Below are positions 6,326 to 40,301 of a stretch of DNA of 64,000 nt, one piece after another (within the stretch, counting starts at the first letter, position 1; each line of letters starts with the position of its first letter). Source of the stretch: a candidate division WOR-3 bacterium (GTDB lineage: Bacteria > Hydrothermota > Tepidihabitantia > Tepidihabitantales > Tepidihabitantaceae); contig JANLFQ010000003.1 in assembly GCA_024653355.1 (NCBI GenBank), forward strand, positions 6,931 through 70,930. The letters are read 5' to 3'. The notes below the pieces were generated by a model. That model ran no database searches. It had not been told where the DNA came from and was given only the letters and a program-made list of their open reading frames with translations. Both the position numbers and the translations under genes were made by a program.

Positions 6326-6330
6326 GGATT

Positions 6331-7083: not shown

Positions 7084-7086
7084 AAG

Positions 7087-16947: not shown

Positions 16948-17739
16948 ATGGCAAAGCGTTACGACTATACCGGTAAAGATGTGCAGGAGGTTTACGACGG
17001 TCCGGGTGGTCTGCTCTGGGAGGCGGTAATGGGTGAGCAGATTCACTCAGGTGGACCTGATGCCACTGACCGGCTGGCACAGGCGCTGGGTCTGAAGCCC
17101 GGGATGCATGTGCTTGATGTGTGCAGTGCGCTGGGCGCACCGGCAAGGCAGATCGCCCAGAAGTATGGGGTCAAAGTTACCGGTCTTGACTTCACAAAGA
17201 CAATGCTGGAAAAGGCGCGGCAGCGGACCAAAGAGGCGGGTCTTGACCATCTGATTACCTTTGTTGAAGGCAATGCGCTTGATATGCCGTTCAAGGCGAA
17301 CACCTTTGATGTGGTCTGGGGGCAGGAGGCGTGGTGCTATGTGACCGACAAGGAACTGCTGGCGCGGGAGTGCTATCGGGTGCTGAAGCCAGGCGGGAAG
17401 ATTGGTTTTACCGACTGGGTGATTACTGGAAAGGTGGAGGAGGATTTGCTGGCAAAACTTTACGAGTCGATGGCGTTTCCTTATATGGAGACCTTTGAAG
17501 GCTGGCAGGAGGTTCTGCGCCGTGCCGGGTTTAAAATCCTTGATGCCCAGGACCAGACTGAGGAGTTCGCCCGCTGCTTTGATGATTACAAGGTGATGGT
17601 GGAGGAGAAACTGAAGCCGACAATTCTTCAGAACTTCGGCAACGACCTTTACCAGTTTGCGGTGAATTTAGTTAATATGTGGCGGGATGCGGCGCATCGG
17701 CATCAGGTGGGCAGAGGCTTTTACATCGGGCAGAAGTGA
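16948..17739 (+). CDS. class I SAM-dependent methyltransferase
   Basis: SD AAAGGAGG upstream. Motif I VLDVCSALGAPARQIA, then VTGLDF, FDVVWGQEAW and VLKPGGKIGFTDW. Substrate cannot be determined. Confidence 0.75.
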   Translation: MAKRYDYTGKDVQEVYDGPGGLLWEAVMGEQIHSGGPDATDRLAQALGLKPGMHVLDVCSALGAPARQIAQKYGVKVTGLDFTKTMLEKARQRTKEAGLDHLITFVEGNALDMPFKANTFDVVWGQEAWCYVTDKELLARECYRVLKPGGKIGFTDWVITGKVEEDLLAKLYESMAFPYMETFEGWQEVLRRAGFKILDAQDQTEEFARCFDDYKVMVEEKLKPTILQNFGNDLYQFAVNLVNMWRDAAHRHQVGRGFYIGQK

Positions 17740-17873
17740 GACGGCGTATCCTGTTCTGGGTGCTGATTGGGCTCGGTGCTGGGGCGCTGATTTTTGGCTC
17801 TTTAGTTGGCGCCTGGGCACGCATTGGCTACTTCAGCAGCCAGATATGCCTCTCCTGTATGGGCATGGTTTAG
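17736..17873 (+). CDS. 45-aa membrane peptide with C-terminal CxxC (not in ORF track as such)
   Basis: GTG overlaps the methyltransferase stop (GTGA). It encodes MRRRILFWVLIGLGAGALIFGSLVGAWARIGYFSSQICLSCMGMV: positive N-terminus, one TM helix, CLSC. It ends 17 nt before the next ATG. Confidence 0.4.
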   Translation: MRRRILFWVLIGLGAGALIFGSLVGAWARIGYFSSQICLSCMGMV

Positions 17874-17889
17874 GAAAAAGGAGGTGTTT

Positions 17890-19689
17890 ATGAGAGGTAA
17901 GTTGCTGATAGTTGCCGGGCTGTTTTTCGCGTTCGGCGTCGCACTGGCAACCCAGCGGGTGATGGTGATGGAAGATTTCACCGCCACCTGGTGCACCTAT
18001 TGTCCGGGTGCGGCACGCGGTGCCGAGGAGTTGAAGTTCCGGGCGTTTGATTCGGTGGTGGTGATTGCCTATCATTCGTCAAACAGCGACCCGTTTTACA
18101 CTGCAGAGGCGGCAAGCCGGATGAGTTACTACGGCGTGACCGGCTATCCGACGATGCGCCTGGATGGCGGACAAGCGGTGGTGGGCGGATTGCACTACGG
18201 CACGATGTATCCGACCTACCGGCAGTTCTTTGACACCCGCAAACTGGAGCCAAGTCCGCTTGATATTAAGCTGGCGGTCACCTATGACTCAGCAACGCGC
18301 AGCGGGGTGTTGACAATCGTGGTTCGCAACACCAGTTCGAGTGCGGTGAGCGGGCAGTTGCACACGGTTCTGACCGAGAGTCACATCTACTACCCGTGGC
18401 AGGGCATGGACAGTCTGCACGATGTAGAACGGCTGATGTTGCCCAATGCCAGCGGTGAGGCGATAACGGTCAACCCCGGGGATTCGGTGGTGCGGACGAG
18501 AAATTTCACCATCAATGCCGGCTGGGTGGCAAGGAACTGCGAGTTTGTCGTGTTCGTGCAGAACAACACCACGAAGTGGATGTATCAGGGTGCGAGTATC
18601 GGGGTGATTGCCGAGCCGGAACTGGAGTTTGTCGGTTATCAACCGGTGCGGCCGCTCCCGGGGCAGAGTTTCAACCTGACGGTCGGGGTGCGCAACATCG
18701 GTAGTACGGCGCTGAGCGGCGCGAGCGCGGTATTGACAACCGACGACCCGTATCTTACGGTTGTTCAGGGAACGAGCAGTTTCGGGCAGATCAACCGGGG
18801 CGCAGATGGTTACTGCGCTACGCCGTTTCAACTGCAGGTGAGTTCTTCGTGCCCGGACCCGCATCGGGCGACGCTTCGGCTGGTAGTTTCGAGTACCGAT
18901 ATGGGCGTGGATACAATGACATTTCCTTTGAACATAACAACCAGCCCGGGTTTTGCCGATGATATGGAACACGGCATCGGGGGCTGGACTCACAGCGGCA
19001 CCAGTGACAACTGGCACCTTTCAACTTATCGTTCCTCATCACCGAGTTACTCCTGGTACTGCGGGGTGGAGTCAAACCACCAGTACACGAATGAGAACGA
19101 CTCCCGTTTGATGACCCCGTTTTTCACTCTGGGCGACTCTGCCTGGGTGCGGTTCAAGCATTACTACGACACCGAGGCGGACTATGACTTCTGCATCCTG
19201 GAGATAAACAACGGTTCGCCGTTCTGGGTACCGCTCGGGATGTGGAGTGGCTCAAGTAACGGCTGGCAGCAGGAGGCGATAGATTTGAGCCCGTTCCGCA
19301 ACCAGACAGTGCGGTTGAGGTTCCGGTTTATCAGCGACTACAATGTCACGGGCGAGGGCTGGTATGTTGACGACTTTGAATGTGGCGCCCAGGTCGGAGT
19401 TGCCGAACCGCGGGTGAATCAGGTGCTGCCAATGGTTCTGGTAAGCAGTCCGGTGCGAATGCGGGCACAGGTGCGGTTTGTGCTGCCCGCCGGGGTTAAG
19501 GCAGAGGCGCAAGTTTACGACATCACCGGAAAGATGGTGCGGCAACTGGGCGACAATCTGAGTGGGACCGGTACGGTGGTGTGGAATCTGACCGACCAGA
19601 GGGGTAAAAAGGTGAGTTCGGGCGGTTACTTTATCCGGCTCTCTTACAGTAACAGTACGGTCAGTGTGCCGGTAGTGGTTGCGAGGTAA
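17890..19689 (+). CDS. secreted thioredoxin-fold (CxxC) / Ig-like / choice-of-anchor-like protein with T9SS CTD
   Basis: ATG at 17890 follows AAAAAGGAGG; signal peptide. VMVMEDFTATWCTYCPGAARG thioredoxin-like motif. The C-terminal beta-sandwich (GGWTHSG..DNWHLS...VRLRFRFISD...GWYVDDFEC) resembles choice-of-anchor/MAM-like domains. Tail is AQVYDITGKMV...GGYFIRLSYSNSTVSVPVVVAR. Confidence 0.7.
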   Translation: MRGKLLIVAGLFFAFGVALATQRVMVMEDFTATWCTYCPGAARGAEELKFRAFDSVVVIAYHSSNSDPFYTAEAASRMSYYGVTGYPTMRLDGGQAVVGGLHYGTMYPTYRQFFDTRKLEPSPLDIKLAVTYDSATRSGVLTIVVRNTSSSAVSGQLHTVLTESHIYYPWQGMDSLHDVERLMLPNASGEAITVNPGDSVVRTRNFTINAGWVARNCEFVVFVQNNTTKWMYQGASIGVIAEPELEFVGYQPVRPLPGQSFNLTVGVRNIGSTALSGASAVLTTDDPYLTVVQGTSSFGQINRGADGYCATPFQLQVSSSCPDPHRATLRLVVSSTDMGVDTMTFPLNITTSPGFADDMEHGIGGWTHSGTSDNWHLSTYRSSSPSYSWYCGVESNHQYTNENDSRLMTPFFTLGDSAWVRFKHYYDTEADYDFCILEINNGSPFWVPLGMWSGSSNGWQQEAIDLSPFRNQTVRLRFRFISDYNVTGEGWYVDDFECGAQVGVAEPRVNQVLPMVLVSSPVRMRAQVRFVLPAGVKAEAQVYDITGKMVRQLGDNLSGTGTVVWNLTDQRGKKVSSGGYFIRLSYSNSTVSVPVVVAR

Positions 19690-19692
19690 GAG

Positions 19693-20454
19693 GTGCGGTT
19701 AAACAGGGGCAGGTTGCTGTTTTTCTTCAGCAGCCTGCTCCTGATTTTCGGCTGTTCGGATGCGCCTTTGATTCCCCTCGTGCCGACCGATCGGGTGGTG
19801 CTGGTGGAATTTTTTACCTGGCAGCGCTGCGTTTACTGCCCGTATGCGGCACGGGCGCTGGACAGTTTGCAGAAGGAGTTTGCCGACAGCGTGGTGGTGA
19901 TTGCCTATCACCGCCGGGTTGCGGGTGACACCCTTTCACCGGCGTATGTTGAGGAGCGGCGCCAAATTTATTACGAGTCCGGCGGTGAACCAGCAACAAT
20001 TTTTGATGGCGGTCCGGTGGTGCGCACCCCGGGACCGGAGTACAACTACGAAACTTTTAAGAACTACATCCTCGGGGCAAAGGCGGTTTTACCGCAAGTG
20101 GAACTGGCGGTCGCGGTGCAGCGCGACTCTTCGCGGGCAACTGTTGTCGTCCGGGTTTTTGGCGTAGATTCCACACCCGCGGAAAGTTTACGGCTTTTTA
20201 TTGTGATAACCGAGGATTCGGTGCGGGCGGCTTTGACCGGGGCAACCGATTCGGTTTTCAACGATGTGATGCGGGCGATGCTGCCTGATGTCAATGGTTT
20301 GCCCTGCTGGTTGCGCCGGGGTGATAGTCTCCGGTTTGAACAGACGGTTCAATTTCCGGTTCACTGGAATCCCGGGCAGTTGAATGTGGTTTGTTTTGTT
20401 CAGGAGCCTTCAAGCCGGCGGGTTCTGCAAGCCTGCCATAAGAAATTGAATTGA
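19693..20454 (+). CDS. thioredoxin-fold (CxxC) lipoprotein, paralogous to the N-terminus of 17890-19689
   Basis: Lipobox LIFGC. RVVLVEFFTWQRCVYCPYAARALD...DSVVVIAYH aligns with RVMVMEDFTATWCTYCPGAARGAE...DSVVVIAYH. GTG start lies 3 nt after the upstream stop. Confidence 0.65.
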   Translation: MRLNRGRLLFFFSSLLLIFGCSDAPLIPLVPTDRVVLVEFFTWQRCVYCPYAARALDSLQKEFADSVVVIAYHRRVAGDTLSPAYVEERRQIYYESGGEPATIFDGGPVVRTPGPEYNYETFKNYILGAKAVLPQVELAVAVQRDSSRATVVVRVFGVDSTPAESLRLFIVITEDSVRAALTGATDSVFNDVMRAMLPDVNGLPCWLRRGDSLRFEQTVQFPVHWNPGQLNVVCFVQEPSSRRVLQACHKKLN

Positions 20455-20469
20455 CAACAGGGGGTGAAT

Positions 20470-21048
20470 ATGAAAAGGTTGGTTTTTTGTCTGATGATTC
20501 TGGCGGGATGGGTGATGCCGGTGCAAGCCGATTACAGTTTTACCTTTGTGTGCCGGAGTGATACCCTGCAACAGGTAGTACCGGGCGGTGTTGGCGTTTA
20601 CTACTTCACCCTGACCAACACCGGGACCGAACCCGATGTTTATCTGTTTGACTGCCGGATTTTGCAGGAGGTGCCGGGCTGGAGCGCAATATACTGTTTG
20701 CGCGGGCGTTGTGTTGAACCCGGGGTGCCGATGTTTGACTCGCTGGCGCCGGGCGAGGTGGATACGACTATTGACATCACGGTGTTCACGACCAATACCG
20801 AGGGCGAAGAAGTGATTCAGATGACGGTGACTTCTCAGGGCGACCCATCACAGGTCAGTTCAATTAAGACTTACACCCGGGTGAGTTGCGGGGTTGAAGA
20901 AGGGGTAACTTATCTTGAGCGTAAGCCGCTGCCCGGTCTGATGTTTGATTATGCCGGAAGAAGGGTACGGACGGTGTTGACACCCGGCGTTTATTTTGTC
21001 CGTCAAGATTCCGGTGCCGGTTTTAAGAAAGTCGTTGTCCTTCGTTAG
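20470..21048 (+). CDS. secreted Ig-like protein with short T9SS-CTD-like tail
   Basis: ATG at 20470 (MKRLVFCLMILAGW...) is preferred to the listed GTG at 20464. Four conserved-looking Cys residues. Tail is GVYFVRQDSGAGFKKVVVLR. Confidence 0.55.
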   Translation: MKRLVFCLMILAGWVMPVQADYSFTFVCRSDTLQQVVPGGVGVYYFTLTNTGTEPDVYLFDCRILQEVPGWSAIYCLRGRCVEPGVPMFDSLAPGEVDTTIDITVFTTNTEGEEVIQMTVTSQGDPSQVSSIKTYTRVSCGVEEGVTYLERKPLPGLMFDYAGRRVRTVLTPGVYFVRQDSGAGFKKVVVLR

Positions 21049-21057
21049 GGGTGTAAT

Positions 21058-22101
21058 TTGAGGAAAAGGGGTCTTTTGAGTTATGCCCGCGCCGCGGGCT
21101 GCGCGGGTAAGGCGTGTCAGACAGACCTGTTTGCTATGCTGGACGGGTTGCCCGTTTTTCACCATCCCGATTTGCTGGTGAGCGGGGCAACCGCGGACGA
21201 TGCCGGAATTTTTCGGCTGGATAAAAACCGGGCGCTGGTTCTGACGGTGGATGTTTTACCACCGGTTGCCGACGAACCTTATGTTTTCGGACAGATTGCG
21301 GCAGCGAACTCCCTCTCGGATGTGTATGCGATGGGTGGCAAACCGCTCGCGGCACTGGCGATTCTCGGAGTGCCGGTTGAAGAGATTGAGTTTACGACGG
21401 TGCGGACCGTGCTCGCCGGTGCCTGGGACAAGGTGAAGGAGGCGGGTGCGGTTGTTGCCGGCGGTCACACGGTAAGAGATTTAGAGTTGAAGTTCGGGCT
21501 GGCGGTAACCGGAATTGTTCATCCCGAAAAGGTGGTGACCAACGCCGGTGCCAGACCCGGTGACCGGTTGCTGTTGACAAAACCGCTCGGGACCGGGGTG
21601 ATTACAACCGCCCAGAAGCACCACCAGGCACCGCCGCAACTGGTGGCAAAGGTGAACAAATTGATGGCGCAGTTGAATCGCGCGGCAGCAGAAGCGATGA
21701 CCGCGGTTGGGGTGAACGCGGCAACCGACATCACCGGTTTCGGGTTGCTGGGGCATTGCTGGGAGATGGCACAGGCGAGCGGAGTTGACATAGTAATCAA
21801 GGCGGACGCAGTGCCTTTTCTCCCCGGGGTTCAGAGGCTGGCTGAGGAAGGGTGGTTTCCGGGCGGAACATTGAAGAATTATGAGTTTATTAGAAGACGA
21901 GCGGAGTTTGCCCGGGGGATAAATAAGACGCTGCGGCTTTTACTGTGTGATGCCCAGACTTCAGGCGGTTTGTTGATTGCGGTGTCCGAAAAGAAGTTTG
22001 CCCGGCTGGAGCAAGAGTTAATAAGAGCCGGCGTTTCGGAGTTCAAGGAGGTTGGGGTAGTAACAGTTGGCACCGGCCGGGTGCGGGTGGTGGCGCGATA
22101 A
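21058..22101 (+). CDS. selD: selenide, water dikinase (selenophosphate synthetase), Cys type
   Basis: LLSYARAAGCAGKACQTDL aligns with E. coli LTQYSHGAGCGCKISPKVL, with Cys at the Cys17/Sec position and the Lys retained. DDAGIF, GQIAAANSLSDVYAMGGKP and the AIR-synthase-like fold are also present. Confidence 0.9.
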   Translation: MRKRGLLSYARAAGCAGKACQTDLFAMLDGLPVFHHPDLLVSGATADDAGIFRLDKNRALVLTVDVLPPVADEPYVFGQIAAANSLSDVYAMGGKPLAALAILGVPVEEIEFTTVRTVLAGAWDKVKEAGAVVAGGHTVRDLELKFGLAVTGIVHPEKVVTNAGARPGDRLLLTKPLGTGVITTAQKHHQAPPQLVAKVNKLMAQLNRAAAEAMTAVGVNAATDITGFGLLGHCWEMAQASGVDIVIKADAVPFLPGVQRLAEEGWFPGGTLKNYEFIRRRAEFARGINKTLRLLLCDAQTSGGLLIAVSEKKFARLEQELIRAGVSEFKEVGVVTVGTGRVRVVAR

Positions 22102-22106
22102 GTTTG

Positions 22107-22134
22107 TTGCCGTGGTCCGGTCATTTCCTATAAT
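22107..22134 (+). promoter_or_regulatory. candidate internal promoter abutting the corrinoid-protein start codon
   Basis: TTGCCG (22107-22112), 16-nt spacer, TATAAT (22129-22134), then only 9 nt (no SD) before ATG 22144. Confidence 0.4.
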
Positions 22135-22143
22135 ATTTAATCT

Positions 22144-22782
22144 ATGGAAAACTCCCGGGATTTATTTTCCTTGCTCGTTGATGCGGTTGTTGCCCTTGAC
22201 CCGGTGCGGGTAGCGCAACTTTGTCAGGAAGCGTTGCGCCAGGGTTTGGCACCTGAGGAGGCGCTGGAGAAAGGTCTGGCACGGGGAATGCGGGTCGTGG
22301 GTGAGAAGTTTGCCGCCCGGGAGTTTTTTGTCCCGGAGGTGCTTCTGGCATCAAAGGCGATGTATGCCGGGTTTGATATCCTGAAGGAACAACTGCCCAG
22401 GGGAACGCGAAGCCGGGGCCGGGTGGCGCTGGGTGTGGTGCAGGGTGATATCCACGACATCGGCAAGAACATCGTTAAGGTGATGGTGCAGGCGGCAGGG
22501 TTTGAGGTTGTGGATTTAGGAAGGAATGTGCCGATTGAGCGGTTTGTCACCGCCGCTGAAGAAGGTGTCCAGATTGTCGGGATGTCTTCTTTGATGACAA
22601 CGACGATGCCCAATATGGCAAAGGTGATTGAGGCACTGAAAAAGCAGGGGTTGCGGGAACGGGTGAAGGTGCTGGTCGGCGGTGCACCGGTGACGCGCCT
22701 TTTTGCCGAACGGATTGGTGCGGACGGTTATGCGCCTGATGCCCACAGTGCGGTGGTTGAGGTTGAACGATTGTTGAAATAG
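22144..22782 (+). CDS. corrinoid (cobalamin-binding) methyl-carrier protein, MtaC/MtbC-like
   Basis: N-terminal helical B12-binding_2-type domain, then DIHDIGKNIV (D.H..G), SSLMTTT (S.L) and VLVGGAP (GG) motifs of base-off/His-on corrinoid binding. Confidence 0.9.
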   Translation: MENSRDLFSLLVDAVVALDPVRVAQLCQEALRQGLAPEEALEKGLARGMRVVGEKFAAREFFVPEVLLASKAMYAGFDILKEQLPRGTRSRGRVALGVVQGDIHDIGKNIVKVMVQAAGFEVVDLGRNVPIERFVTAAEEGVQIVGMSSLMTTTMPNMAKVIEALKKQGLRERVKVLVGGAPVTRLFAERIGADGYAPDAHSAVVEVERLLK

Positions 22783-22785
22783 AAA

Positions 22786-23778
22786 GTGGCAAGGGCAAAA
22801 GAGCGATTGAGAACCGTTTTACAGCCTGACTTGTCCCGGGTCAAACCGCCGCTGGTGTTTCCGATTGTGGTGGCAAATCATGCCGCTTGGGTCGCGGGTG
22901 AACGGTTGAGCCGGGCTTTGACCGATAGCCGAATTTTGAGCGCCGTGCTCTATCAAGCATATCGGCTTTACAATTATGACCTGATTATGGTGTTTGCTGA
23001 TGTCCTTGTTGAGGCGGAGGCGATGGGGTGCGAGATTGAGATGGCGGAAGACGAGCCACCGATTCTGGTCCGGGCTGCCGGACAAAGGGCACAGGTTGTC
23101 AATCCGGTCCGGGCATGCCGGATGCCAATGATTCTTGATGCGACTGAAGGACTGGTGCGGATGGCGGGTAAAGATGTTTATGTCCTGACATCGCTCAAGG
23201 GTCCATTTTCCCTTGCCAGTTTTCTTGCTGGACCAGAGGAGTTTTTTGAGATTTTACTATCGGCACCAGAGCGGGCAGCGCAATTTCTGCGCCTGGCGAC
23301 CGAGAATCAGAAAATCTTTGCCCGGGAGATTGTGAAGCGGGGTGGGGTGCCATTTATCGGTGACCCGATGGCTTCTGGTAGTGTTATAAGTCCGGCACTG
23401 TTTGAGCGGTTTGCCCTGCCCTATTTGAAGGAACTGGTGGCGGCGATTCACCAGCTGGGCTCCTGGACCGGGTTGCATATCTGCGGCGACACGACCAAGA
23501 TTTTGCGGCTGATGTGCGCTACCGGTGCCGAGATTATAAGTGTTGACGAGATGGATATCGGTTTTGTCCGGCAGGAGGTGGGCGCGGACCGGGTGATTAT
23601 GGGTAATGTGTCAACCGGGTTGCTGGAGAGCGGCAGACCGGAACAGATTTATCAGGCGGCGCAGGACTGTTTGAAAAAGGGGTTGCCGAAGATGATTCTT
23701 GCCAGCGCCTGCGATGTACCGACAGCAACACCGGTGGCGAATGTGCAGGCGCTGGTTTCGGCGGCACAGGGGTGGTGA
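22786..23778 (+). CDS. MtaA/CmuA (uroporphyrinogen-decarboxylase) family methyltransferase, Zn type
   Basis: URO-D-like TIM-barrel sequence with HICGDT and SACDVP, matching the His-x-Cys...Cys zinc ligands of MtaA-type MT2 enzymes. Confidence 0.8.
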   Translation: MARAKERLRTVLQPDLSRVKPPLVFPIVVANHAAWVAGERLSRALTDSRILSAVLYQAYRLYNYDLIMVFADVLVEAEAMGCEIEMAEDEPPILVRAAGQRAQVVNPVRACRMPMILDATEGLVRMAGKDVYVLTSLKGPFSLASFLAGPEEFFEILLSAPERAAQFLRLATENQKIFAREIVKRGGVPFIGDPMASGSVISPALFERFALPYLKELVAAIHQLGSWTGLHICGDTTKILRLMCATGAEIISVDEMDIGFVRQEVGADRVIMGNVSTGLLESGRPEQIYQAAQDCLKKGLPKMILASACDVPTATPVANVQALVSAAQGW

Positions 23779-25181
23779 TGATTGTTCGCTGTAAACCAGC
23801 GGGGTGTAAGTCGCTGCTGGAACTGTTATGGGCTCAGGATATTGATTTACCGGGCGATTGCGGCGGCAGGGGTTCGTGCGGCAAGTGCCGGGTGCGGCTG
23901 TTGTCCGATGGTTCTTATGTGCTTGCCTGTCAGTTTGTGCCCAAGCGTTCGGTGGTGGTTGAGATTGAGGGCAATTTCAATAAAGCGGTGCGCGGTAAAC
24001 GTAGTGGTGCAGGACACCCTGAAATCAGGCATAAGGATACGGTGGTGGTTGCGGACATCGGCACGACAACTTTACGGCTGGCATTGGTTGACCGGGTAAA
24101 AGGGCGGCGGATTAAAACCGTAACGCAGTTAAATCCGCAGATAAGATTCGGTGCTGATGTCCTTACCCGGATAAGCCAGGAAAAGAAGGTGCGCCGGGCA
24201 GGACTGGGCAATTGTCTCCAAGAGTTTATCAGCCAGAACAGGGTTTGGCGGTCAAATCCGGTCACGGTGGTGGGCAATACGGTGATGATGCACTTTGTTT
24301 TCGGGAAGAGTCCGAAGGGTTTAGGTCAATTTCCCTATCGCCCGAACCTGCCTTTGCGCCGGGTGATTCAAAGAAAGCAGGACGGCCTGAAGTTGTGTAC
24401 CCTGCCGCTGCTCGGTTCGTTCATCGGCAGTGACTGCACCGCTGCGATTCTCGCGGCAGGGATAAACCAGACCGAAAGGTTGACACTTTTAGTTGATGCC
24501 GGGACCAACGGTGAGGTGGTATTAGGTAACCGGCACAAAATTGTTGCCTGTTCAACTGCGGCCGGACCGGCTTTTGAGGGGGCAACTTTGAGTTGTGGTG
24601 CTCTTGCCGTACCAGGGGCGATTACCGGTTGCCGGTTTTACCGGGGAAGATGGGTCGTGAAGACGGTGGGGAACAAAGTTCCAACTGGAATCTGCGGTTC
24701 TGGGGTGCTGGATGCTATTGCCGAGGCGGTGCGTACTGGATTGATTGAACCCGGGGGCAGGCTGAAGCAGGGGGAACGGCTTCAGATTTACGGTGCGGAG
24801 CCGGCAGGGGTTTACCTGACGCAGGCGGACATCAGGGAGGTGCAACTCGCCAAGGCGGCGATTGCCAGCGGCATAAAATTACTCCATAAAGAGTGGTCCG
24901 GAAGACCGATTGAACGGGTGGTGATAACCGGTCGGTTTGGGGGCAGGTTGAACAGTCAGGCGGCAATGGCGATTGGACTTTTGCCGGTCGTGCCCGCAGC
25001 GGTGGTAAAACAAAAGCCCGACTTGGCGCTTGCGGGCGCGATAAAGGCGGTGCTTGCGCCCGATGTTCTGAAACAGGCGGCGGATTTGAGTGCCCGTGTT
25101 ACCGAAATTCGGCTCGCCGAACACCCGGATTTTGAAGCGATGTTTGTTGAGTCACTGGCACTAACAGAATGGCGATTTTAG
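23778..25181 (+). CDS. RamA/RACE-type ATP-dependent reductive activase of corrinoid proteins (2Fe-2S ferredoxin + ASKHA domain)
   Basis: CGGRGSCGKCRV...ACQ 2Fe-2S motif, then ASKHA phosphate motifs (VVADIGTTTLRLALVD, LLVDAGTNGEVVLG). ATG 23778 overlaps the upstream stop (TGATG); a GTG at 23772 is an alternative start. Confidence 0.75.
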   Translation: MIVRCKPAGCKSLLELLWAQDIDLPGDCGGRGSCGKCRVRLLSDGSYVLACQFVPKRSVVVEIEGNFNKAVRGKRSGAGHPEIRHKDTVVVADIGTTTLRLALVDRVKGRRIKTVTQLNPQIRFGADVLTRISQEKKVRRAGLGNCLQEFISQNRVWRSNPVTVVGNTVMMHFVFGKSPKGLGQFPYRPNLPLRRVIQRKQDGLKLCTLPLLGSFIGSDCTAAILAAGINQTERLTLLVDAGTNGEVVLGNRHKIVACSTAAGPAFEGATLSCGALAVPGAITGCRFYRGRWVVKTVGNKVPTGICGSGVLDAIAEAVRTGLIEPGGRLKQGERLQIYGAEPAGVYLTQADIREVQLAKAAIASGIKLLHKEWSGRPIERVVITGRFGGRLNSQAAMAIGLLPVVPAAVVKQKPDLALAGAIKAVLAPDVLKQAADLSARVTEIRLAEHPDFEAMFVESLALTEWRF

Positions 25182-26290
25182 ATAGCGCCCGGCTTGAGAG
25201 TTTACGCTTGGAACGGTTTGAGGAATTGACGGGTTTGAAGGCGCAGGGTAAGAAGGTGGTGGGTTACTTCTGCCTTTATGCGCCGGTGGAAATTGTTCAG
25301 GCAGCAGGAGCGATTCCGGTGCGGCTCGCACGCGCCGATTATGGAAGCGCACTTGCGGGTGAACGGTTTCTGCGCGCCGATGCCTGTCCGTTCTGTAAGG
25401 CGAGTCTGGGTAAATTTGTCCAGGACCCGTTGTATCAACTGGTTGACGGGGTGGTAATTGTCAACACCTGTGATATGATGCGCCGGTTACCCGAGGCGCT
25501 AACAACTAACTTTTCGGTGCCGGTTTTTTTGCTTTATCTGCCGCGCACGAGTGAGTTGTTTCCCAATCGGTTGCAGGGGTTCCAAGCCGGATTGAGTGAC
25601 CTTAAGGCGTGGTTGGGCGGTTTGACCGGTCAGGAGTGGCAAGAGGAACGGTTGCTGGAAGCGATTGACGAGGCAAACCAGTTGCGGCGCAAACTTCAGG
25701 AATTGGACCAAACCCGGGCAGAAATGCCGCCCAAAATTTCGGGGGGCGAACTGTTTGATATCGTGGCACTGGCAACGCTTTTACCACCAAAAAGGATGTT
25801 AAATCTACTCAATGATTTGTTAGCAGTGCTCCGGAAGCCGGCGGAAGCGATGAACAAAAACCGCGCGCGGCTACTTCTGACCGGCAGCATCTTATCCGAA
25901 GAGGACCGCACCCTGATTGAAATTGTTGAAGAAAAAGCGGATATTGTTGCGGATACGGTTTGCACCGGCAGCAGATGGTTTAACGAGGAGATTACGGTTG
26001 CGGAGGAGCCGTTTGCCGGTCTTGCCCGATTTTACTTTAGCCGAACACCGTGCGCCTGCCGCCGGCCCAATACCGCTCTTTTTGAGTACATCAAGCAGCA
26101 GGTGGCGGCGCGAAAGGTTCAGGGAATTGTCAGTAAGAGTTTGCTTTACTGCGATGCCTACCGGTTTGAGGTTAAACAACTGCGGCAGGAGGTGGGGCTT
26201 CCGGTGTTAGAGGTTGATGGCGACTATTCGCAGGTGAACCGCCAGCAGTTGCGTACCCGAGTTGAGGCGTTTCTCGAGATGTTGCGATGA
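25169..26290 (+). CDS. 2-hydroxyacyl-CoA dehydratase / benzoyl-CoA reductase family subunit (HgdB/BcrC-like)
   Basis: GKKVVGYFCLYAPVEIVQAAGAIPVRL, ADACPFCKASLG and VNTCDMM are typical HGD-D family features. It overlaps the upstream gene by 13 nt. Confidence 0.75.
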   Translation: MAILDSARLESLRLERFEELTGLKAQGKKVVGYFCLYAPVEIVQAAGAIPVRLARADYGSALAGERFLRADACPFCKASLGKFVQDPLYQLVDGVVIVNTCDMMRRLPEALTTNFSVPVFLLYLPRTSELFPNRLQGFQAGLSDLKAWLGGLTGQEWQEERLLEAIDEANQLRRKLQELDQTRAEMPPKISGGELFDIVALATLLPPKRMLNLLNDLLAVLRKPAEAMNKNRARLLLTGSILSEEDRTLIEIVEEKADIVADTVCTGSRWFNEEITVAEEPFAGLARFYFSRTPCACRRPNTALFEYIKQQVAARKVQGIVSKSLLYCDAYRFEVKQLRQEVGLPVLEVDGDYSQVNRQQLRTRVEAFLEMLR

Positions 26291-27699
26291 GTTGGTTTGA
26301 TTATCAGGACCCAACACCAGCCCGGATTACATTTGACGAGTGGGACGATTTGTTTCAACAAATACCGGACGAGTTGATTGACCAATTTCACTACTTTCCG
26401 CCCAATCAGGAGGCGTGGTCAAAATATCTGTTTCCGCCCCAGGTGTTCGCCATCTACGGGGCAAGGCATCTGCGCCGATTGAAGTTTGACAATTCGCTGG
26501 CGGCGCTGCGGCTCTGGGGTTTTGTCCAGAATGAAATTGAACGGTTGTTTCGCGCCCGGCAGGTGGGGAAGAAGGTGGTGGCGGTGATGGGTGACCTGGG
26601 TCCGCTGGCGGTGATTGTGAATTCGGTGGCGGCAAGGGCTGGTTCGAGCAAGGATGGTGGGGGATGCGTCGCCTTTTATCCTGACTGCTGGTGGTGGACA
26701 CCTTTTGCGATGGAGAGCAAGGTGTTACTGGACAAAGCGGCAGAACTTGGTATCGGTGATGCCACCTGTTTTTCCCGGGCGGCACTGGGCGCTTTTGCCA
26801 AGCACAGTTATTTTCCCGACCCGGATTTGGTGATTGCCGCAACCGGTGCATCGTGCGACGACTATTCCGGGGTGGAAAGTCTCGTAGCAAAGATGGTGCC
26901 CGAGGTCGTCTGGGTGGAAACACCGCTGCGGCGCGTTGAACCTGAGGCAAGGGAACGGGTTGAGCGGATGGTAGTTGAGGAGTATCAACGGGTGCTCAAA
27001 AAACTGGAGGAGTTGACCGGAGTCAAGGTGACCGAAGCGATGTTGCAACAGGGAATACGCCGGGCAAATCACCTGCGGCGCCTGACTCAGCGATTGAAGG
27101 AACTCGCTTACGGTTATGGCGTGTTTCCAGCACTGGAAACGATGGTCGTGGAGTTTGGTTGTCTGCACGGCTATTCCGACATTGTGGAGTGGACCGCAAT
27201 TGTGGAACATCTGGTCCAGACCGGGGAGGCACGGCTTGCGGCGGGGAAAACGGTGCTGGCATTGGACAGTTTGCGGATTGGCTGGGTAACACCGCCCGCG
27301 GACCCGTTACTTTTGTGTTATGTTGAAGACCGGGGGGCACGAATTGTAGCGAGCGAATATGTGATTAATCAGGCGTTGAGTTTGATTGACGAGTCGGTGC
27401 CGCCGCTTTTGGGGATTGCCCGTTCCCTGCTCACCGGTTCGCTGATTGGCACGTCAAGAGAACGGGCGGAGATGTTTGTCACTGCCGCGCAAGGGCGTCG
27501 AGCCGAAGGGGTGATTGTTTCGGGAATTTTAGGCGGTTCGCACTGCGCAATGGAGTCTCGGTTGATTGGTGATTACATTAAACAGAAACTGGACATCCCG
27601 ATTCTGGAGTTTGATGTCGCACCACCCAACAAGGCGATTGACCGCCAGACGCAGACAAGGATTGATGCGTTTCTGGAACTGGTGCGGAGCCGGCGATGA
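26287..27699 (+). CDS. 2-hydroxyacyl-CoA dehydratase / benzoyl-CoA reductase family subunit (HgdA/BcrB-like)
   Basis: ATGA overlap with the preceding gene. GKKVVAVMGDLGP, DATCFSRAALG, ASCDDYSG and a C-terminal GILGGSHCAME...ILEFDV are typical of the larger HGD-D subunit. Confidence 0.7.
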   Translation: MSWFDYQDPTPARITFDEWDDLFQQIPDELIDQFHYFPPNQEAWSKYLFPPQVFAIYGARHLRRLKFDNSLAALRLWGFVQNEIERLFRARQVGKKVVAVMGDLGPLAVIVNSVAARAGSSKDGGGCVAFYPDCWWWTPFAMESKVLLDKAAELGIGDATCFSRAALGAFAKHSYFPDPDLVIAATGASCDDYSGVESLVAKMVPEVVWVETPLRRVEPEARERVERMVVEEYQRVLKKLEELTGVKVTEAMLQQGIRRANHLRRLTQRLKELAYGYGVFPALETMVVEFGCLHGYSDIVEWTAIVEHLVQTGEARLAAGKTVLALDSLRIGWVTPPADPLLLCYVEDRGARIVASEYVINQALSLIDESVPPLLGIARSLLTGSLIGTSRERAEMFVTAAQGRRAEGVIVSGILGGSHCAMESRLIGDYIKQKLDIPILEFDVAPPNKAIDRQTQTRIDAFLELVRSRR

Positions 27700-28757
27700 A
27701 GGAGTTGCTCAATCCCCGGGAGCGGTTTTCGCTTCTGGTTATTGACGAACCACAGGACCGGGTGCCAATTTTTCCGTTGTTGACCGCCCATGCCGCAAAA
27801 TTTTCCGGGGTGAGTTTACGCGACTACTACACCGATGGGGTGGTGATGGCAAAGTGCCAGTTAAGAGCAAGGGAGTTTTACAACACCGACTTTATCTCGA
27901 TTTTTTCTGAGGTTGGTTTGATTGCCGAGGCACTAGGTTCAGAGTTTTTGTATCCGGAGGATGACCTGCCGGTGCTGGCACGACCGCGCTGGCAGAAAAT
28001 CGAGGAGGCGGCGCGCGGTCTAAAAGAAAATCTGACCCTTAAGGGTCGGGTGGCGGTTTATCTTGATGCGATAAATTATGCCTGGGAGGCGATTGCTGAT
28101 GTTGTGCCAGTCCTTGCTTATGTACCGGCACCTTTTACCACCGCGCAGCAACTGGTTGAACCTGAGGAGTTTCTCCTTGCCCTGCTGGAAAAGCCGGAAC
28201 TGGTAAAATCGGTCCTTGACGAAGTGACACAGGTGGTAAAAAATTTTTCCCGGCTCGTGATTCGAGCCGGGGCGTTGCCCATTTTAGTTGACCCGCTGGC
28301 TTCGGGTAGCGTACTCAGCCCCAGGGAGTATCGGGAGTTTGCCCTGCCCGCGGAAAAGGCGGTAATAGATTTCTGGCACCGCTATGACCTCGATGTGGTT
28401 TTACACATCTGTGGCGATACGAGCGAAATCGCACCGTTGATGCCTGAGACCGGTGCCGACCTGATAAGCGTTGATAAAGTGGACCTTAGTCAGGTTGTTG
28501 CGGCAGTGGGAGAAAAGGTGCGGGTCATCGGCAATTTTGATACGACCGAGTTGTGGCTGGGCACCGCAAAGGAGATTGGCGATAAGGTCAGCGGGATGGT
28601 GGCGCAGGCAAAGAGTTGTCCCCGGGGCTATGTGGCGGCGACCGGATGTGAGGTGCCGATTGCCACACCGGAGGAAAATTTGCAGGCTTTTGTCAGCGCG
28701 GCTAAGGAGGCAGGAAGGTATCAATTTCCGCCTGCCCGGATAAGTGAAAGGAGATAG
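27696..28757 (+). CDS. second MtaA/CmuA (URO-D) family methyltransferase, Zn type
   Basis: ATGA overlap with the upstream gene. HICGDTSEI and ATGCEVP zinc-ligand motifs. Clearly divergent from the 22786 paralog. Confidence 0.8.
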   Translation: MKELLNPRERFSLLVIDEPQDRVPIFPLLTAHAAKFSGVSLRDYYTDGVVMAKCQLRAREFYNTDFISIFSEVGLIAEALGSEFLYPEDDLPVLARPRWQKIEEAARGLKENLTLKGRVAVYLDAINYAWEAIADVVPVLAYVPAPFTTAQQLVEPEEFLLALLEKPELVKSVLDEVTQVVKNFSRLVIRAGALPILVDPLASGSVLSPREYREFALPAEKAVIDFWHRYDLDVVLHICGDTSEIAPLMPETGADLISVDKVDLSQVVAAVGEKVRVIGNFDTTELWLGTAKEIGDKVSGMVAQAKSCPRGYVAATGCEVPIATPEENLQAFVSAAKEAGRYQFPPARISERR

Positions 28758-28763
28758 CACAAG

Positions 28764-29543
28764 ATGTTGAGCGTTGGCATTGATGTCGGTTCGGTTAACA
28801 CCAAGGTGTTGATTTACGATTCAGCACGGGATGAGGTGGTTGCCCGATGTGTGGCACCAACCGGAATGAAGCCCAGGGAGCAGGCACAGCGGGTGTTTGA
28901 GTTTTGTGTGGCGAATGCCGGTCTGGAGCGCTCGGCACTGGGACACATCGTTGCTACCGGTTATGCCCGGCAGGCGGTTGATTTTGCCCGGCAGACGGTG
29001 ACCGAGATTACCGCGACGGGCCGGGGGATAAGAAAGTGGCATCCTTCCAGTCGAACGGTCATTGACATCGGCGGCCAGGATTCAAAGGTGATAGCGCTTG
29101 ATGAACAGGGACGGGTGCAGGACTTTGTAATGAACGACCGTTGTGCCGCCGGCACGGGTAGTTTTCTTGAGTTTATTGCCCGGGCGCTGAATGTGCCGAT
29201 TGAGCAGTTCGGGGAGTTGAGTGCGCGTTCCCAGAAACCGGTGCTGCTCTCCAGCCTCTGTGTGGTGATGGCGGAGTCGGAAATCCTTTCGCTTGTTGCT
29301 GCGGATGTGCCCCGCGAGGATATCATCGCCGGTTTACATCTGGCGCTGGCAACGAGGGTTGTCAATATGGCGGCACGGGTTAATGTTTTGCCCGAGGTGA
29401 TTTTTACCGGCGGTACCGCGCTCAATTCAGGGCTGCGCCAGGCGCTGGAACGAGTTCTGGGGTTAAAGGTCCAAAGCTCTCAGGAGCCGCTTTTTGCGGC
29501 GGCAATGGGCGCGGCACTGTTAGGTGCCGACACTACTTTTTAA
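28764..29543 (+). CDS. HgdC/BcrAD_BadFG-type ATPase ('archerase' activator of radical dehydratases/reductases)
   Basis: SVGIDVGSVNTKVLIY, IDIGGQDSKVI, NDRCAAGTGSFLE and SSLCVVMAESE (the two cluster-bridging Cys contexts of HgdC). About 260 aa, like homodimeric activators. Confidence 0.85.
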   Translation: MLSVGIDVGSVNTKVLIYDSARDEVVARCVAPTGMKPREQAQRVFEFCVANAGLERSALGHIVATGYARQAVDFARQTVTEITATGRGIRKWHPSSRTVIDIGGQDSKVIALDEQGRVQDFVMNDRCAAGTGSFLEFIARALNVPIEQFGELSARSQKPVLLSSLCVVMAESEILSLVAADVPREDIIAGLHLALATRVVNMAARVNVLPEVIFTGGTALNSGLRQALERVLGLKVQSSQEPLFAAAMGAALLGADTTF

Positions 29544-30879
29544 GGACAAGCAGGCGTTGAACAGCGCCATCGTTTGGGATGAAGAAAATCCCGGTAGAGC
29601 GAGCGGGAGAAGCGATTCTACCGGTGATGTCATAAACCGGGAAGGAGTTTGGCGGGAGCGAATTTAAATGGAGCGTGGTCAAGGGCGGGTGATGATTGGG
29701 ATACTGTTTTTCTAATTCAACCGTCTGCCAGAAGTTCTGGTAGGTGGCCAGTATCAACCGACAGATTGAGTCGGTCAGGGTTTGCGCCGCGGTGCGGGAG
29801 GGACCAATGGCACCCCACTCGGTTTCGCATCGGGCGACGAGGGCAAAAATTGTTGACTCGGTGGGTGCGCTGAACTGTAACCAGCGCGCCAGGCGCTGGG
29901 TGTTGATTGCCTTGGGGTATTCGGGAAGGGGGTAAAGGTAACTAACCAGCCGCTGGGCTTCATCGCAGATTGGTGCGGTTATTGTGCCGTCAAGGTAAGA
30001 AGGGACTGTTTCGGCCGCGACCCAGAGTGGGATAGGAAGGGTGGCAACCGGTTGACCAAGGAGCACCCACATCATACCGGTTCGAAGATGGGCACCGGGT
30101 GCAGGCCCAACCATTATCTCAACGGAGCGGGTCTGGGAACGGCAGATGGTGGTATCGGTGGGAAGGTAACCGAATGGTAAAGAACCGAACTTACCAAGAA
30201 AAGGCAAGGGGTAAGGCTCAAATCCGACCTGGCCCAAGTCGCGAGCAAGGGTGCAGATGATAAAAGGAAGATTGAGGCGGTTTTCATAAAAGGCGGCACG
30301 ACAGAGTTGTTCTGCCCGCTCGTAGCGGTTTTTCCCCAATAACCGATTCGGTCCCCCGGACATTGAGTAGTTTGCCCGGATGAGAAATCCTAAGGAGTCG
30401 TTCTTGGTATCGTAGCGGGTATAAGATGTGTAACCGGCTTCGAAGATGGCGGTGGTACCGGTAGAGTCAAAAACCCCAAAGTTTGCCGGTGTTTCCCGGC
30501 CAACGATGTTTAAGGAGTCAAGGAGATGGGCAAAGTCTTCCACCGTGGCACAGGAGCCAAGGGCAAGACGCATTATGTTGCCGTCGTCGGCAGCAGTGAT
30601 GTTGCCGGTGAGGTTGTAGGAGTTGGAGTTCATAATTGCAAATCCAACCTCATTGATGCCCGCCCAGACATCGAGCGTTTCCCCCGCATAAACATTGGCG
30701 ACAAACCGGAACCGGGGACCGCGGAAGAATTTCATCTCCTGGTCGGGATTGTTGACATCGCGATTTTTCCAGAGAACGGCACGACCTTCACTCAGCGCTG
30801 TGGGACCGAAGGCACCGATGGTACAGGCGAAGGTAAAACTAAGGTGTAGAAGGAGTAGCGGGACGGGTTTAAATCTCAT
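29533..30879 (-). CDS. secreted Ntn-hydrolase (C45/choloylglycine-hydrolase-like) with T9SS CTD
   Basis: I prefer the ATG at 30879 (MRFKPVPLLLLHLSFTFA|CTIGAFGP). Signal-peptide cleavage would expose an N-terminal Cys followed by ...AVLWKNRD. Tail is PVYDITGRIAS...GIFFIPNDGAVQRLLVLKK. Confidence 0.6.
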   Translation of the reverse strand: MRFKPVPLLLLHLSFTFACTIGAFGPTALSEGRAVLWKNRDVNNPDQEMKFFRGPRFRFVANVYAGETLDVWAGINEVGFAIMNSNSYNLTGNITAADDGNIMRLALGSCATVEDFAHLLDSLNIVGRETPANFGVFDSTGTTAIFEAGYTSYTRYDTKNDSLGFLIRANYSMSGGPNRLLGKNRYERAEQLCRAAFYENRLNLPFIICTLARDLGQVGFEPYPLPFLGKFGSLPFGYLPTDTTICRSQTRSVEIMVGPAPGAHLRTGMMWVLLGQPVATLPIPLWVAAETVPSYLDGTITAPICDEAQRLVSYLYPLPEYPKAINTQRLARWLQFSAPTESTIFALVARCETEWGAIGPSRTAAQTLTDSICRLILATYQNFWQTVELEKQYPNHHPPLTTLHLNSLPPNSFPVYDITGRIASPARSTGIFFIPNDGAVQRLLVLKK

Positions 30880-31921: not shown

Positions 31922-31925
31922 GCGT

Positions 31926-33191: not shown

Positions 33192-33292
33192 TGGAATATT
33201 TTCAATGATTATCGGTAAAAGTCAAGGAGATGGTAAAATGTTAAAGATAGGCGTGATGGATATTAGCCCAACCGATTGAACCGATAAATAGT

Positions 33293-33321
33293 TTGACATT
33301 TACCTTTTCGGCACTTATATT
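33293..33321 (+). promoter_or_regulatory. sigma70-type promoter of 33378 gene
   Basis: TTGACA (33293-33298), 17-nt spacer, TATATT (33316-33321). Confidence 0.55.
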
Positions 33322-33377
33322 ATTGAAGGTAAGTTAAGATGTTTAATCGCCCTGAAATGGGGCGGTAAGGAGGTAAA

Positions 33378-40236: not shown

Positions 40237-40301
40237 TAAACCCGGTGCGGGTTACATCCACGGTGAGGCGCGAATCAAATTCCGTAAAAAAGGAGGAAGT
40301 A

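Follow-up and report, generated by a model that had tools for sequence, protein, structure and literature searches.

In a 64,000-nucleotide stretch of DNA from a candidate division WOR-3 bacterium (contig JANLFQ010000003.1, in the following called the window), seven intact open reading frames (ORFs) follow each other on the forward strand from position 22144 to 29543. They encode a corrinoid methyl-transfer system of the mlp/Sdm kind joined to an ATP-driven reductase related to double-cubane cluster proteins (DCCP) and benzoyl-CoA reductases (BCR). According to the ORF list of the window, all seven genes are situated where an earlier note, made from the sequence alone, had placed them, and Pfam and NCBIfam matched each of them to the domain family predicted there. 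The motifs quoted in that note were found as well: the corrinoid protein has DIHDIG, SSL and GG, and the ATPase contains both NDRCAAGTG and SSLCVVMAESE. The genes are as tightly packed as claimed, with junctions of +3, -7, -13, -4 (ATGA), -4 (ATGA) and +6 nt. If the ATG at 23778 is taken as the start of RACo, the second of these, between MlpA and RACo, shrinks to an overlap of 1 nt (TGATG).

The upstream boundary has to be moved. A gene for a class-I S-adenosylmethionine (SAM)-dependent methyltransferase, starting at 16948, is a conserved partner of the cluster, and therefore the conserved unit begins there rather than at 22144. The full same-strand unit comprises 12 genes (16948-29543) with intergenic gaps of 3-66 nt. 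Besides the SAM methyltransferase, the earlier note had overlooked the Omp28-like genes and the likelihood that the small and the large HGD-D subunit share their tasks as in BzdNO. The features of the unit are:

16948..17739, forward strand: class-I SAM-dependent methyltransferase, 263 aa, the eighth conserved partner (Pfam Methyltransf_11/25/31)
17806..19689, forward strand: secreted Omp28-family protein, 627 aa, with CxxC and a C-terminal tail of the type IX secretion system (T9SS) type (Pfam Omp28, InhA-like_MAM, FlgD_ig)
19693..20454, forward strand: Omp28-family lipoprotein-like protein, 253 aa, with CxxC (Pfam Omp28, DUF1223)
20464..21048, forward strand: 194-aa protein with hydrophobic N-terminus, without Pfam or NCBIfam match
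21058..22101, forward strand: SelD, selenide water dikinase, Cys form (AAGCAGK; TIGR00476, NF002098)
22107..22134, forward strand: weak promoter-like site TTGCCG-16-TATAAT in the 42-nt gap between selD and the corrinoid protein gene, matching 10/12 consensus positions
22144..22782, forward strand: corrinoid methyl-carrier protein (CoP), 212 aa, DxHxxG (Pfam B12-binding_2 and B12-binding)
22786..23778, forward strand: MlpA, MtaA-like zinc methyltransferase, 330 aa (URO-D, 206 bits; MtaA-CmuA)
23772..25181, forward strand: RACo/Ram-type ATP-dependent corrinoid reductive activase, 469 aa (N-terminal [2Fe-2S] domain Fer2, RACo_middle, RACo_C_ter)
25169..26290, forward strand: HgdS, small HGD-D subunit, 373 aa, with a predicted [8Fe-9S] double cubane (HGD-D, 275.9 bits)
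26287..27699, forward strand: HgdL, large HGD-D subunit, 470 aa, predicted to be catalytic, with a three-Cys [4Fe-4S] cluster (HGD-D, 118.5 bits)
27696..28757, forward strand: MlpB, MtaA-like zinc methyltransferase, 353 aa, its start overlapping the HgdL stop (URO-D, 227 bits; MtaA-CmuA)
28764..29543, forward strand: HgdC/DCCP-R-type ATP-dependent electron-activating ATPase, 259 aa (BcrAD_BadFG, 202 bits; TIGR00241, 249 bits, cut-off 125)

Conservation of the gene order

Related loci were gathered from a genome-collection scan (11 loci), a metagenome scan (80 loci, alignment of the 470-aa subunit) and look-ups of distant relatives. The order CoP-MlpA-RACo-HgdS-HgdL-MlpB-ATPase recurs across 98 non-redundant loci. 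Their large HGD-D subunits share 39-100% identity with that of the window, and the order persists down to the lower end of this HgdL identity range. Counting in each case the loci with enough flanking sequence, HgdS is present in 76 of 79, MlpB downstream of HgdL in 67 of 74 and the ATPase in 60 of 67; the values for RACo, MlpA and CoP are 46/64, 45/56 and 43/53, respectively. In two metagenome contigs (L025, L026) the large-subunit protein matches that of the window with 100% identity and the remaining cluster proteins with 96-100%; evidently the window either stems from these contigs or was sampled again in them.

Since the same order is found in 98 loci, the linkage is not a matter of chance. 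Pseudogenes and mis-assembly were rejected in view of the intact ORFs and the identical independent assemblies, so that the objections of chance, pseudogenes and mis-assembly raised by the earlier note against its own observation do not apply. Overlapping start and stop codons together with an order maintained in about 100 diverged loci argue for a direct functional coupling and not for a loose neighbourhood.

A minimal variant consists of HgdL, MlpB and the ATPase, one gene intervening before the ATPase in L062/L064/L065. In L038, L076, L082, L084 and L087 (at 0.2-3 kb) we noticed a second HGD-D gene, whose product is 28-30% identical to HgdS, along with a second BcrAD_BadFG ATPase gene. This extra pair, about 2-4 kb upstream of the main operon, may be a separate pair of the type formed by DCCP and its reductase (DCCP-R).

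Corrinoid methyl transfer and the ATP-driven reductase

Gene clusters named mlp were defined by Kountz & Balskus in 2023 and occur in more than 100, mostly Firmicute, genera (PMC10418091). Type 1 clusters are defined by at least two MtaA-like proteins (>25% identity to a soluble coenzyme M methyltransferase), including at least one Mlp2 and at least one Mlp3 orthologue, and many mlp clusters also encode a dicubane cluster protein with its reductase as well as SelD and further selenium-related proteins (PMC10418091). Building on the genetics of the sdmABC genes of M. voltae (Niess & Klein 2004, as cited in PMC10418091), a salvage of methyl-selenides has been proposed for these clusters, and Mlp2 of C. 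ljungdahlii (ClMlp2) slowly transfers methyl groups from methylcobalamin to selenide (PMC10418091). The homologous locus of M. maripaludis is induced 5.6-7.8 log2-fold upon selenium starvation (PMC11097638). WOR-3 was not found in the covered part of the published mlp genome list or, by name, in any of the supplementary files (PMC10418091).

Our reference was a single mlp cluster of Acetoanaerobium noterae, which is among the published mlp species; in it the labels Mlp1, Mlp2 and Mlp3 were assigned by gene order only: URO-D, URO-D, CoP, URO-D, Ram, URO-D, matching the order Mlp1-Mlp2-CoP-Mlp3-Ram of C. ljungdahlii. CoP of the window is 42.5% identical to the corrinoid protein of this cluster and reaches 208 bits with TIGR02370, just below the cut-off of 215. 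RACo shows 33% identity to the A. noterae Ram, is devoid of the linker region and has the conserved residues Cys30, 36, 39 and 53. The reference cluster is located on a sequence (L108, NZ_CP154629.1) that is listed in PLSDB as 'Acetoanaerobium noterae plasmid pTPELB2'; because it comprises 2.63 Mb and carries housekeeping genes besides the mlp cluster, the plasmid label is probably wrong and the sequence a chromosome. This cluster has its fourth URO-D gene after Ram, and an ABC transporter and a CobW-like gene are situated upstream.

Among solved structures, MtaA (4AY7) is the best match of both MlpA and MlpB, and the HxC...C zinc ligands coincide in the alignments. The zinc-site motifs LHICGD...ACD in MlpA and LHICGD...GCE in MlpB correspond to a His-Cys-Cys coordination, and the cysteines (Cys233/Cys309 in MlpA, Cys239/Cys318 in MlpB) are conserved in about 130 homologues. 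Such a site would suit thiolate or selenolate substrates. With TIGR01463 the two proteins score 190 and 165 bits, under the cut-off of 235, and their similarity to MtaA in the neighbour-joining analysis is 0.20-0.23 (1 minus a BLOSUM62-based distance, which is not percent identity). Compared with the one reference cluster, MlpB scores 179 bits with the gene in the Mlp2 position and 80 bits with that in the Mlp3 position, whereas MlpA is ambiguous (124 versus 111 bits). In a rough neighbour-joining tree both proteins are placed on the Mlp2 side, neither of them grouping with the Mlp3-position gene or with MtaA. MlpA and MlpB thus look Mlp2-like.

With type 1 mlp clusters and SdmABC the window shares the corrinoid protein, the Ram/RACE-type activase, the His-Cys-Cys Mlps and the lack of a tetrahydrofolate (H4folate) methyltransferase among the scanned ORFs. 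It differs in that both Mlps are placed on the Mlp2 side, no Mlp3- or Mlp1-type protein being found in the rough tree with its one reference. Furthermore, the reductase genes are accessory neighbours in the published clusters but embedded between the activase and MlpB in the window, and the window encodes a predicted heterodimeric reductase with a specialised large subunit as well as a conserved SAM methyltransferase. The methylthiol and methanol systems of methanogens (MtsAB, MtaABC) and the O-demethylases of acetogens (Odm/Vdm) have in common with the window an MtaA-fold zinc methyltransferase, a corrinoid protein and an ATP-dependent activase. Unlike these systems, the window offers no methanogenesis or Wood-Ljungdahl context, no methyltransferase of the MtaB/MttB (MT1) type and no H4folate methyltransferase. 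In the O-demethylases (Odm/Vdm/Mto), which work with a methyl-H4folate/H4MPT methyltransferase, a carboxylate replaces a Cys in the zinc site, whereas the window Mlps are of the S/Se type.

The negative statements on neighbouring genes refer to a Pfam scan of the ORFs of at least 194 aa in 16948-35192 and of most larger ORFs in 1989-53526. No domain of a pterin/H4folate methyltransferase and, as the earlier note had said of the cluster, no CoA ligase or CoA transferase was detected among these ORFs.

The reductase is predicted to consist of two unlike HGD-D subunits, whose genes overlap at stop and start and are co-conserved in 76 of 79 loci, and of one ATPase. DCCP is the closest solved structure for both subunits. 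HgdS matches DCCP (6ENO/7YYL) with 147 bits, followed by BzdN with 94 bits. Its residues Cys35/73/101/265/295/328 align one to one with the [8Fe-9S] ligands of BzdN (Cys36/73/100/263/293/327) and homologues retain them. Where the DCCP motif has a seventh cysteine that is not a ligand (Cys94), HgdS has Ala54/Arg55. Only Cys134, 161, 190 and 420 are invariant in 120 homologues of HgdL. Cys161/190/420 align with Cys73/101/328 of HgdS, the remaining three ligand positions being lost, and Cys134 is an extra cysteine specific to the HgdL family. HgdL thereby shows the pattern of BzdO and HadB, in which the loss of one sub-cluster leaves a catalytic [4Fe-4S] cluster with an open iron (PMC11971306).

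HgdL is among the best conserved proteins of the cluster, has a long N-terminal extension and belongs to a narrow family: an exhaustive search among 1.84 billion representatives yielded 214 relatives at E <= 1e-3. A similarity to MbdO (E = 5e-4) was seen only with the family profile. The AlphaFold2 model of HgdL (pLDDT 80, pTM 0.87) was compared by Foldseek with BzdO/HadB and BzdN/DCCP, giving TM scores of 0.59-0.77 that do not separate the catalytic from the electron-storage type. On HadB the model superimposes with 3.8 A rmsd (TM 0.77), the lowest value among the catalytic (alpha/BzdO-type) subunits, and on the BzdN chain with 3.7 A. The assignment of roles to HgdS and HgdL therefore rests on the cysteine patterns.

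HGD-D polypeptides in which an HgdL-like and an HgdS-like part are fused also occur (P0129, 867 aa; P0139, 861 aa; P0147, 656 aa). In L015/L016 (8001-10604) such a fusion is accompanied by a separate upstream HGD-D gene, resulting in three HGD-D modules per cluster.

In the ATPase, Cys127 and Cys166 are invariant in 75 homologues and, judging from the matching sequence context, would correspond to the cluster-bridging residues C115 and C152 of DCCP-R. Taken by its ligand patterns, the reductase looks like a BzdNO-like heterodimer served by one HgdC/DCCP-R-type ATPase and not like a homodimeric DCCP.

DCCP and DCCP-R of Carboxydothermus hydrogenoformans (6ENO, 7YYL) share with the window the six [8Fe-9S] ligand cysteines of HgdS, a single homodimer-type ATPase with two conserved cysteines and, plausibly, a small molecule rather than a CoA ester as substrate. 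In DCCP, however, two identical subunits each hold a double cubane, while the window encodes two unlike subunits, HgdL lacking three of the ligands. With NF040772 (double_cubane) HgdS scores 235 and HgdL 65 bits, both under the cut-off of 350. BzdNO (8S02; PMC11971306) combines, like the pair predicted here from ligand patterns, an [8Fe-9S] subunit with a larger subunit carrying a three-Cys [4Fe-4S] cluster with open iron, but the similarity is low (the 94 bits to BzdN), the scores stay below the family cut-offs, and Cys134 and the N-terminal extension of HgdL are additional differences. Class I BCR has two ATPase subunits, whereas the window has one and neither a CoA ligase nor an aromatic-degradation context. 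The scores with the NCBIfam BCR models are 90 bits for TIGR03190 (cut-off 454), 87 for TIGR02263 (421) and 160 for TIGR03192 (380). The dehydratases HgdAB/HgdC and HadBC/HadI share the HGD-D fold and a single activator gene of the TIGR00241 type. They differ in having single cubanes in both subunits, where HgdS has the full ligand set of a double cubane, and no CoA transferase is found near the window cluster; the scores are far under the family cut-offs (HadC model NF052456: 99 bits versus 700). No curated NCBIfam family covers HgdL, the SAM methyltransferase or the 194-aa protein. Type 1 mlp clusters, DCCP, class I BCR and the dehydratases thus each have some defining feature that the cluster lacks or does not clearly show.

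These comparisons bear on the first reading of the earlier note, the demethylation of a methoxy- or methylthio-aromatic compound coupled to ATP-driven dearomatisation or dehydroxylation. URO-D-family enzymes do include phenolic O-demethylases, and the cluster ligands of the two HGD-D subunits are arranged much as in BzdNO. This reading is nevertheless disfavoured because both Mlps have a His-Cys-Cys zinc site and not the carboxylate-containing O-type site, because no CoA-activating enzyme is encoded, and because the BzdN/BcrC model scores of 87-90 bits are far under the cut-offs of 421-454. The single ATPase gene in place of the two of BCR and the lack of an H4folate methyltransferase and of any known aromatic-degradation family among the scanned neighbours point in the same direction. 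We regard methoxy-aromatic O-demethylation as extremely improbable.

The statement that the composition is not characterised holds in one respect: no biochemical role has been published for the HGD-D component, and we found no literature match joining 2-hydroxyacyl-CoA dehydratase, corrinoid protein and MtaA. It does not hold in the other, since clusters of Mlp, corrinoid protein and Ram with a double-cubane protein, its reductase and selD have already been described (PMC10418091). The core association and the selenium hypothesis are thus already published. New are the apparently BzdNO-type HGD-D pair, the SAM methyltransferase partner, the corrinoid-free relatives and the presence of two Mlps that look Mlp2-like.

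SelD, the SAM methyltransferase and the possible substrates

The SelD of the window is bona fide, with 357 bits for TIGR00476 (cut-off 125), 323 bits for NF002098 (cut-off 299) and the motif GCAGK. SelD was recruited beside the module in at least four independent arrangements. The window, L007, L008, L036 and further loci have it between the SAM methyltransferase and CoP. In L073 and L092 it precedes the SAM methyltransferase, in L080 and L022 it follows the ATPase, and in L017 it is fused to AhpD and placed immediately ahead of the SAM methyltransferase. The window and its closest relatives have the Cys form, while in L036, L043, L053, L061, L073, L080 and L092 the cluster-adjacent SelD carries an in-frame TGA, i.e. 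selenocysteine (Sec), at the position of Cys15. This TGA at the catalytic position means that at least some of these organisms decode selenocysteine. In L092, a YeeE/YedE-type (PF04143) membrane protein is encoded at 2636-3775, between SelD and the SAM methyltransferase; YedE is a selenium-linked candidate (PMC5322559).

In the lineage of the window, two Omp28-family genes, the gene of the 194-aa protein and selD are inserted between the SAM methyltransferase and CoP, and the 194-aa protein is co-conserved with the Omp28-like genes and SelD there. The gene of the 627-aa Omp28 protein travels with SelD in 12 fetched loci (9 distinct contigs). The block is complete in L007/L027, L008, L026, L036, L043, L045, L052 and L053, and in L001/L028 and L025 the contig ends within its upstream part. 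The 627-aa protein bears Cys63 and Cys66, invariant in 20 aligned homologues, and matches NF045500 ('Omp28-related selenoprotein') weakly (68 bits, cut-off 200). All 21 aligned homologues of the 253-aa protein retain its Cys46 and Cys49, and its scores of 72 bits (lipoprot_Omp28) and 47 bits (Omp28_seleno) are both below the NCBIfam cut-off. Both proteins carry Cys, unlike the selenoprotein family which they distantly resemble.

Membrane proteins resembling Fer4_5 polyferredoxins and a class-V aminotransferase of the NifS/Sec-lyase type were noticed in L080 (10287-11312), L022 (1570-2721) and L073 (363-1496, reverse strand). The polyferredoxin-like proteins adjacent to the cluster could be electron donors.

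Gene content, cofactor ligands, gene order and the repeated placement of SelD beside the module are observations. From them we infer the substrate, the direction of methyl flow and the role of the SAM methyltransferase, and we tentatively favour, at slightly less than an even chance, a processing of selenium or related chalcogens in which methyl transfer and ATP-driven reduction would deliver selenide to SelD. Of the three readings of the earlier note, the one on methyl-chalcogen metabolism linked to selD is the best supported, and it matches the published hypothesis (PMC10418091). The Mlps would exchange methyl groups between CoP, alternating between Co(I) and CH3-Co(III), and methylated selenium (or sulfur) compounds, RACo re-reducing inactive Co(II) to Co(I). 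The ATPase would feed energised electrons into the [8Fe-9S] double cubane of HgdS, where they could be stored until HgdL spends them at its three-Cys [4Fe-4S] cluster with open iron on small Se or S species and not on a CoA ester. The reductive step might act e.g. on an Se-Se bond, on Se(0) or polyselenide or on a C-Se bond, and the resulting selenide would pass to the adjacent SelD. The secreted CxxC-containing Omp28-like proteins may capture extracellular selenium.

Several points weigh against this scheme. By sequence, selenium is indistinguishable from sulfur, arsenic and tellurium as the element handled. SelD was found within the fetched flanks of only 10 of 30 well-flanked loci and is therefore a recurrent but not a universal neighbour. 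Most selenium reductions do not obviously need an ATP-driven low-potential reductase, and the published scheme works without one. Neither an H4folate methyltransferase nor another methyl acceptor is present among the scanned ORFs. No Mlp3-type protein was found in the rough one-reference neighbour-joining test, so that membership in type 1 as defined is not demonstrated. Finally, a SAM methyltransferase has no role in a pure demethylation or salvage scheme, and its presence in the cluster hints at methylation in the opposite direction.

The gene of this SAM methyltransferase, 3.3 kb upstream of selD in the window, immediately precedes that of CoP in 18 diverged loci, and in L106 the two overlap by stop and start. 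The protein retains 62-74% identity even where the values for MlpA, RACo and HgdS fall to 29-42%, and Cys59, Cys130 and Cys210 are conserved. It remains below every NCBIfam cut-off, the nearest models being those of sarcosine/dimethylglycine N-methyltransferases, the DVU_1556 family and ArsM-type enzymes. More distant HgdL relatives (29-36% identity in tblastn) belong to clusters without corrinoid or URO-D genes, with the order SAM methyltransferase - HGD-D - HgdL-like - (second HGD-D) - ATPase and some of the genes fused. A SAM methyltransferase, to which that of the window is 37-44% identical, is present in all of these corrinoid-free variants, and SelD adjoins some of them. The reductase is consequently always accompanied by a methyltransferase, be it SAM- or corrinoid-dependent.

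The role of the SAM methyltransferase might accordingly be sought in methylation or volatilisation. The reductase would make a nucleophile (selenide, telluride, sulfide or a reduced arsenical), which is then methylated either by the SAM methyltransferase directly, as in the corrinoid-free clusters, or in the window through a relay from SAM to the corrinoid protein and the Mlps, the outcome being detoxification or a buffering of the pool that feeds SelD. In accordance with this, no other partner is as widely shared as the SAM methyltransferase (18 loci and all corrinoid-free variants), which is also among the better conserved proteins, including its three cysteines; its distant relatives comprise ArsM-type and selenoprotein methyltransferases, and ClMlp2 was assayed in the methylating direction, from methylcobalamin to selenide (PMC10418091). 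On the other hand, a class-I methyltransferase acting on a corrinoid protein is not known, and the relay would be wasteful as SAM could methylate the acceptor directly. The nearest curated relatives are N-methyltransferases, all under cut-off, and the data on M. voltae and M. maripaludis indicate the use of methyl-selenides under selenium starvation. Methylation therefore appears rather unlikely.

The element could instead be sulfur, and the system could act on methanethiol, dimethyl sulfide or methylthio compounds or in methionine salvage, as has been suggested for 'non-selenium' mlp clusters. The reductase would then be a counterpart of the nitrogenase-like methylthio-alkane reductase encoded beside those clusters, which pair with MarHDK-like ATP-driven reductases (PMC10418091), a functional analogy. 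The His-Cys-Cys zinc site fits sulfur equally well, about two thirds of the well-flanked loci are without a nearby SelD, and TusA and DsrE genes are close to one corrinoid-free cluster. Against this stand the several independent recruitments of SelD, often in its Sec form, and the one of a YedE-type transporter; moreover, no methionine-salvage or sulfur-assimilation genes occur among the scanned window ORFs. We consider methyl-sulfur metabolism improbable, although less so than the possibilities discussed next.

HgdL always adjoins a methyltransferase, namely the overlapping MlpB (67/74 loci) or, in corrinoid-free clusters, the SAM methyltransferase, and the minimal variant retains just HgdL, MlpB and the ATPase. 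This would fit the second reading of the earlier note, by which the HGD-D pair is a radical or low-potential substrate activator for the methyltransferases; the adjacent enzyme would methylate or demethylate a reduced or radical intermediate made by HgdL. Alternatively, HgdL might reductively discharge the methyl group of CH3-Co(III), which would solve the problem of the missing acceptor. Such chemistry is, however, without precedent, the reductase can do without a corrinoid, as is evident from the corrinoid-free variants, and adjacency alone is no proof of a shared intermediate. A direct coupling of either kind is accordingly quite unlikely.

The SelD link could also reflect a cofactor need, selenium being required by the reductase itself (e.g. 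as a selenide bridge) and the methyl-transfer genes serving an unrelated substrate. Haft & Gwadz found 955 of 970 double-cubane proteins in SelD-positive genomes, a near-universal co-occurrence, and raised the possibility of a 2(4Fe-4S)-Se cluster (bioRxiv 10.1101/2022.07.06.499078). In the crystal structures of both DCCP and BzdN the bridging atom is a sulfide, though, and separate experimental data tie the Mlp/Sdm systems to the use of methyl-selenides. A mere cofactor need is thus very improbable.

Returning to the processing of selenium or related chalcogens, a further claim concerns the reductase as such. HgdS, HgdL and the ATPase might represent an unrecognised branch of the BCR, 2-hydroxyacyl-CoA dehydratase and DCCP enzymes, i.e. 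a heterodimer with [8Fe-9S] and [4Fe-4S] clusters that is obligately paired with a methyltransferase and reduces a selenium (chalcogen) species at the expense of ATP. Candidate reactions of such a branch are the reduction of Se(0) or diselenide to selenide, the reductive cleavage of C-Se bonds and the reductive discharge of CH3-Co(III). We hold this to be doubtful. If true, it would be the first physiological role of a double-cubane-type enzyme outside aromatic ring reduction and would explain the genome-wide link between double-cubane proteins and SelD.

A physiological role of double-cubane-cluster reductases has been sought since 2018, and none is established for DCCP (PMC9351452). What is known so far of the function of the widespread mlp clusters comes from genetic work on methanogens and a single, weak activity in vitro. 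The operon described here, which could help to reveal the cellular role of these reductases, ties the two open problems together in a compact and conserved unit and singles out HgdL, as a narrow and conserved catalytic-type subunit, together with its SAM methyltransferase partner. The simpler corrinoid-free versions keep the same core, and with them HgdL and its partner provide a small, defined set of proteins for anaerobic reconstitution. Should the selenium reading be correct, the operon would be a route by which anaerobes of selenium-poor sediments obtain selenide for SelD, and it would add an ATP-driven step to the selenium cycle.

Genomic surroundings

The scan for promoters and terminators in the window gave weak consensus sites only, and tRNA and Rfam scans of the window had no hits, neither to tRNA-Sec nor to a cobalamin riboswitch or a SECIS family. 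A mobile-element origin is not indicated: no integrase or transposase family is present among the Pfam-scanned ORFs, and the GC content of the cluster is in line with that of its flanks. Clustering of all flanking ORFs of the related loci revealed no further widely conserved partner, only a lineage-level synteny with downstream housekeeping genes. Convergent to the operon, a C45/AAT-like protein, IspG (GcpE) and an EPSP-synthase-family enzyme are encoded on the reverse strand at 29533-33191. These genes are co-conserved with the operon in 22-25 loci, which looks like housekeeping synteny of the lineage and not like a part of the system.

The surrounding genes are an ordinary chromosomal set including pheST, recO, ispG, fumarase and many Por_Secre_tail proteins. 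Large secreted proteins with this tail (T9SS) are encoded at 1989-3683, 8727-9389, 11921-15583, 33378-35192 and 40245-43235; they carry Kelch/SBBP/BNR beta-propeller repeats, and their density is unusually high. The host uses a type IX secretion system, and homologues bear the name 'candidate division WOR-3'. At 4893-8715, genes of a two-subunit class-I fumarate hydratase are followed by those of a 2Fe-2S/4Fe-4S protein and of an FAD_binding_2 flavoprotein, which look like a fumarate reductase or succinate dehydrogenase without an obvious membrane anchor. Just upstream of pheS, a 450-aa ORF without Pfam match is located at 45034-46386.

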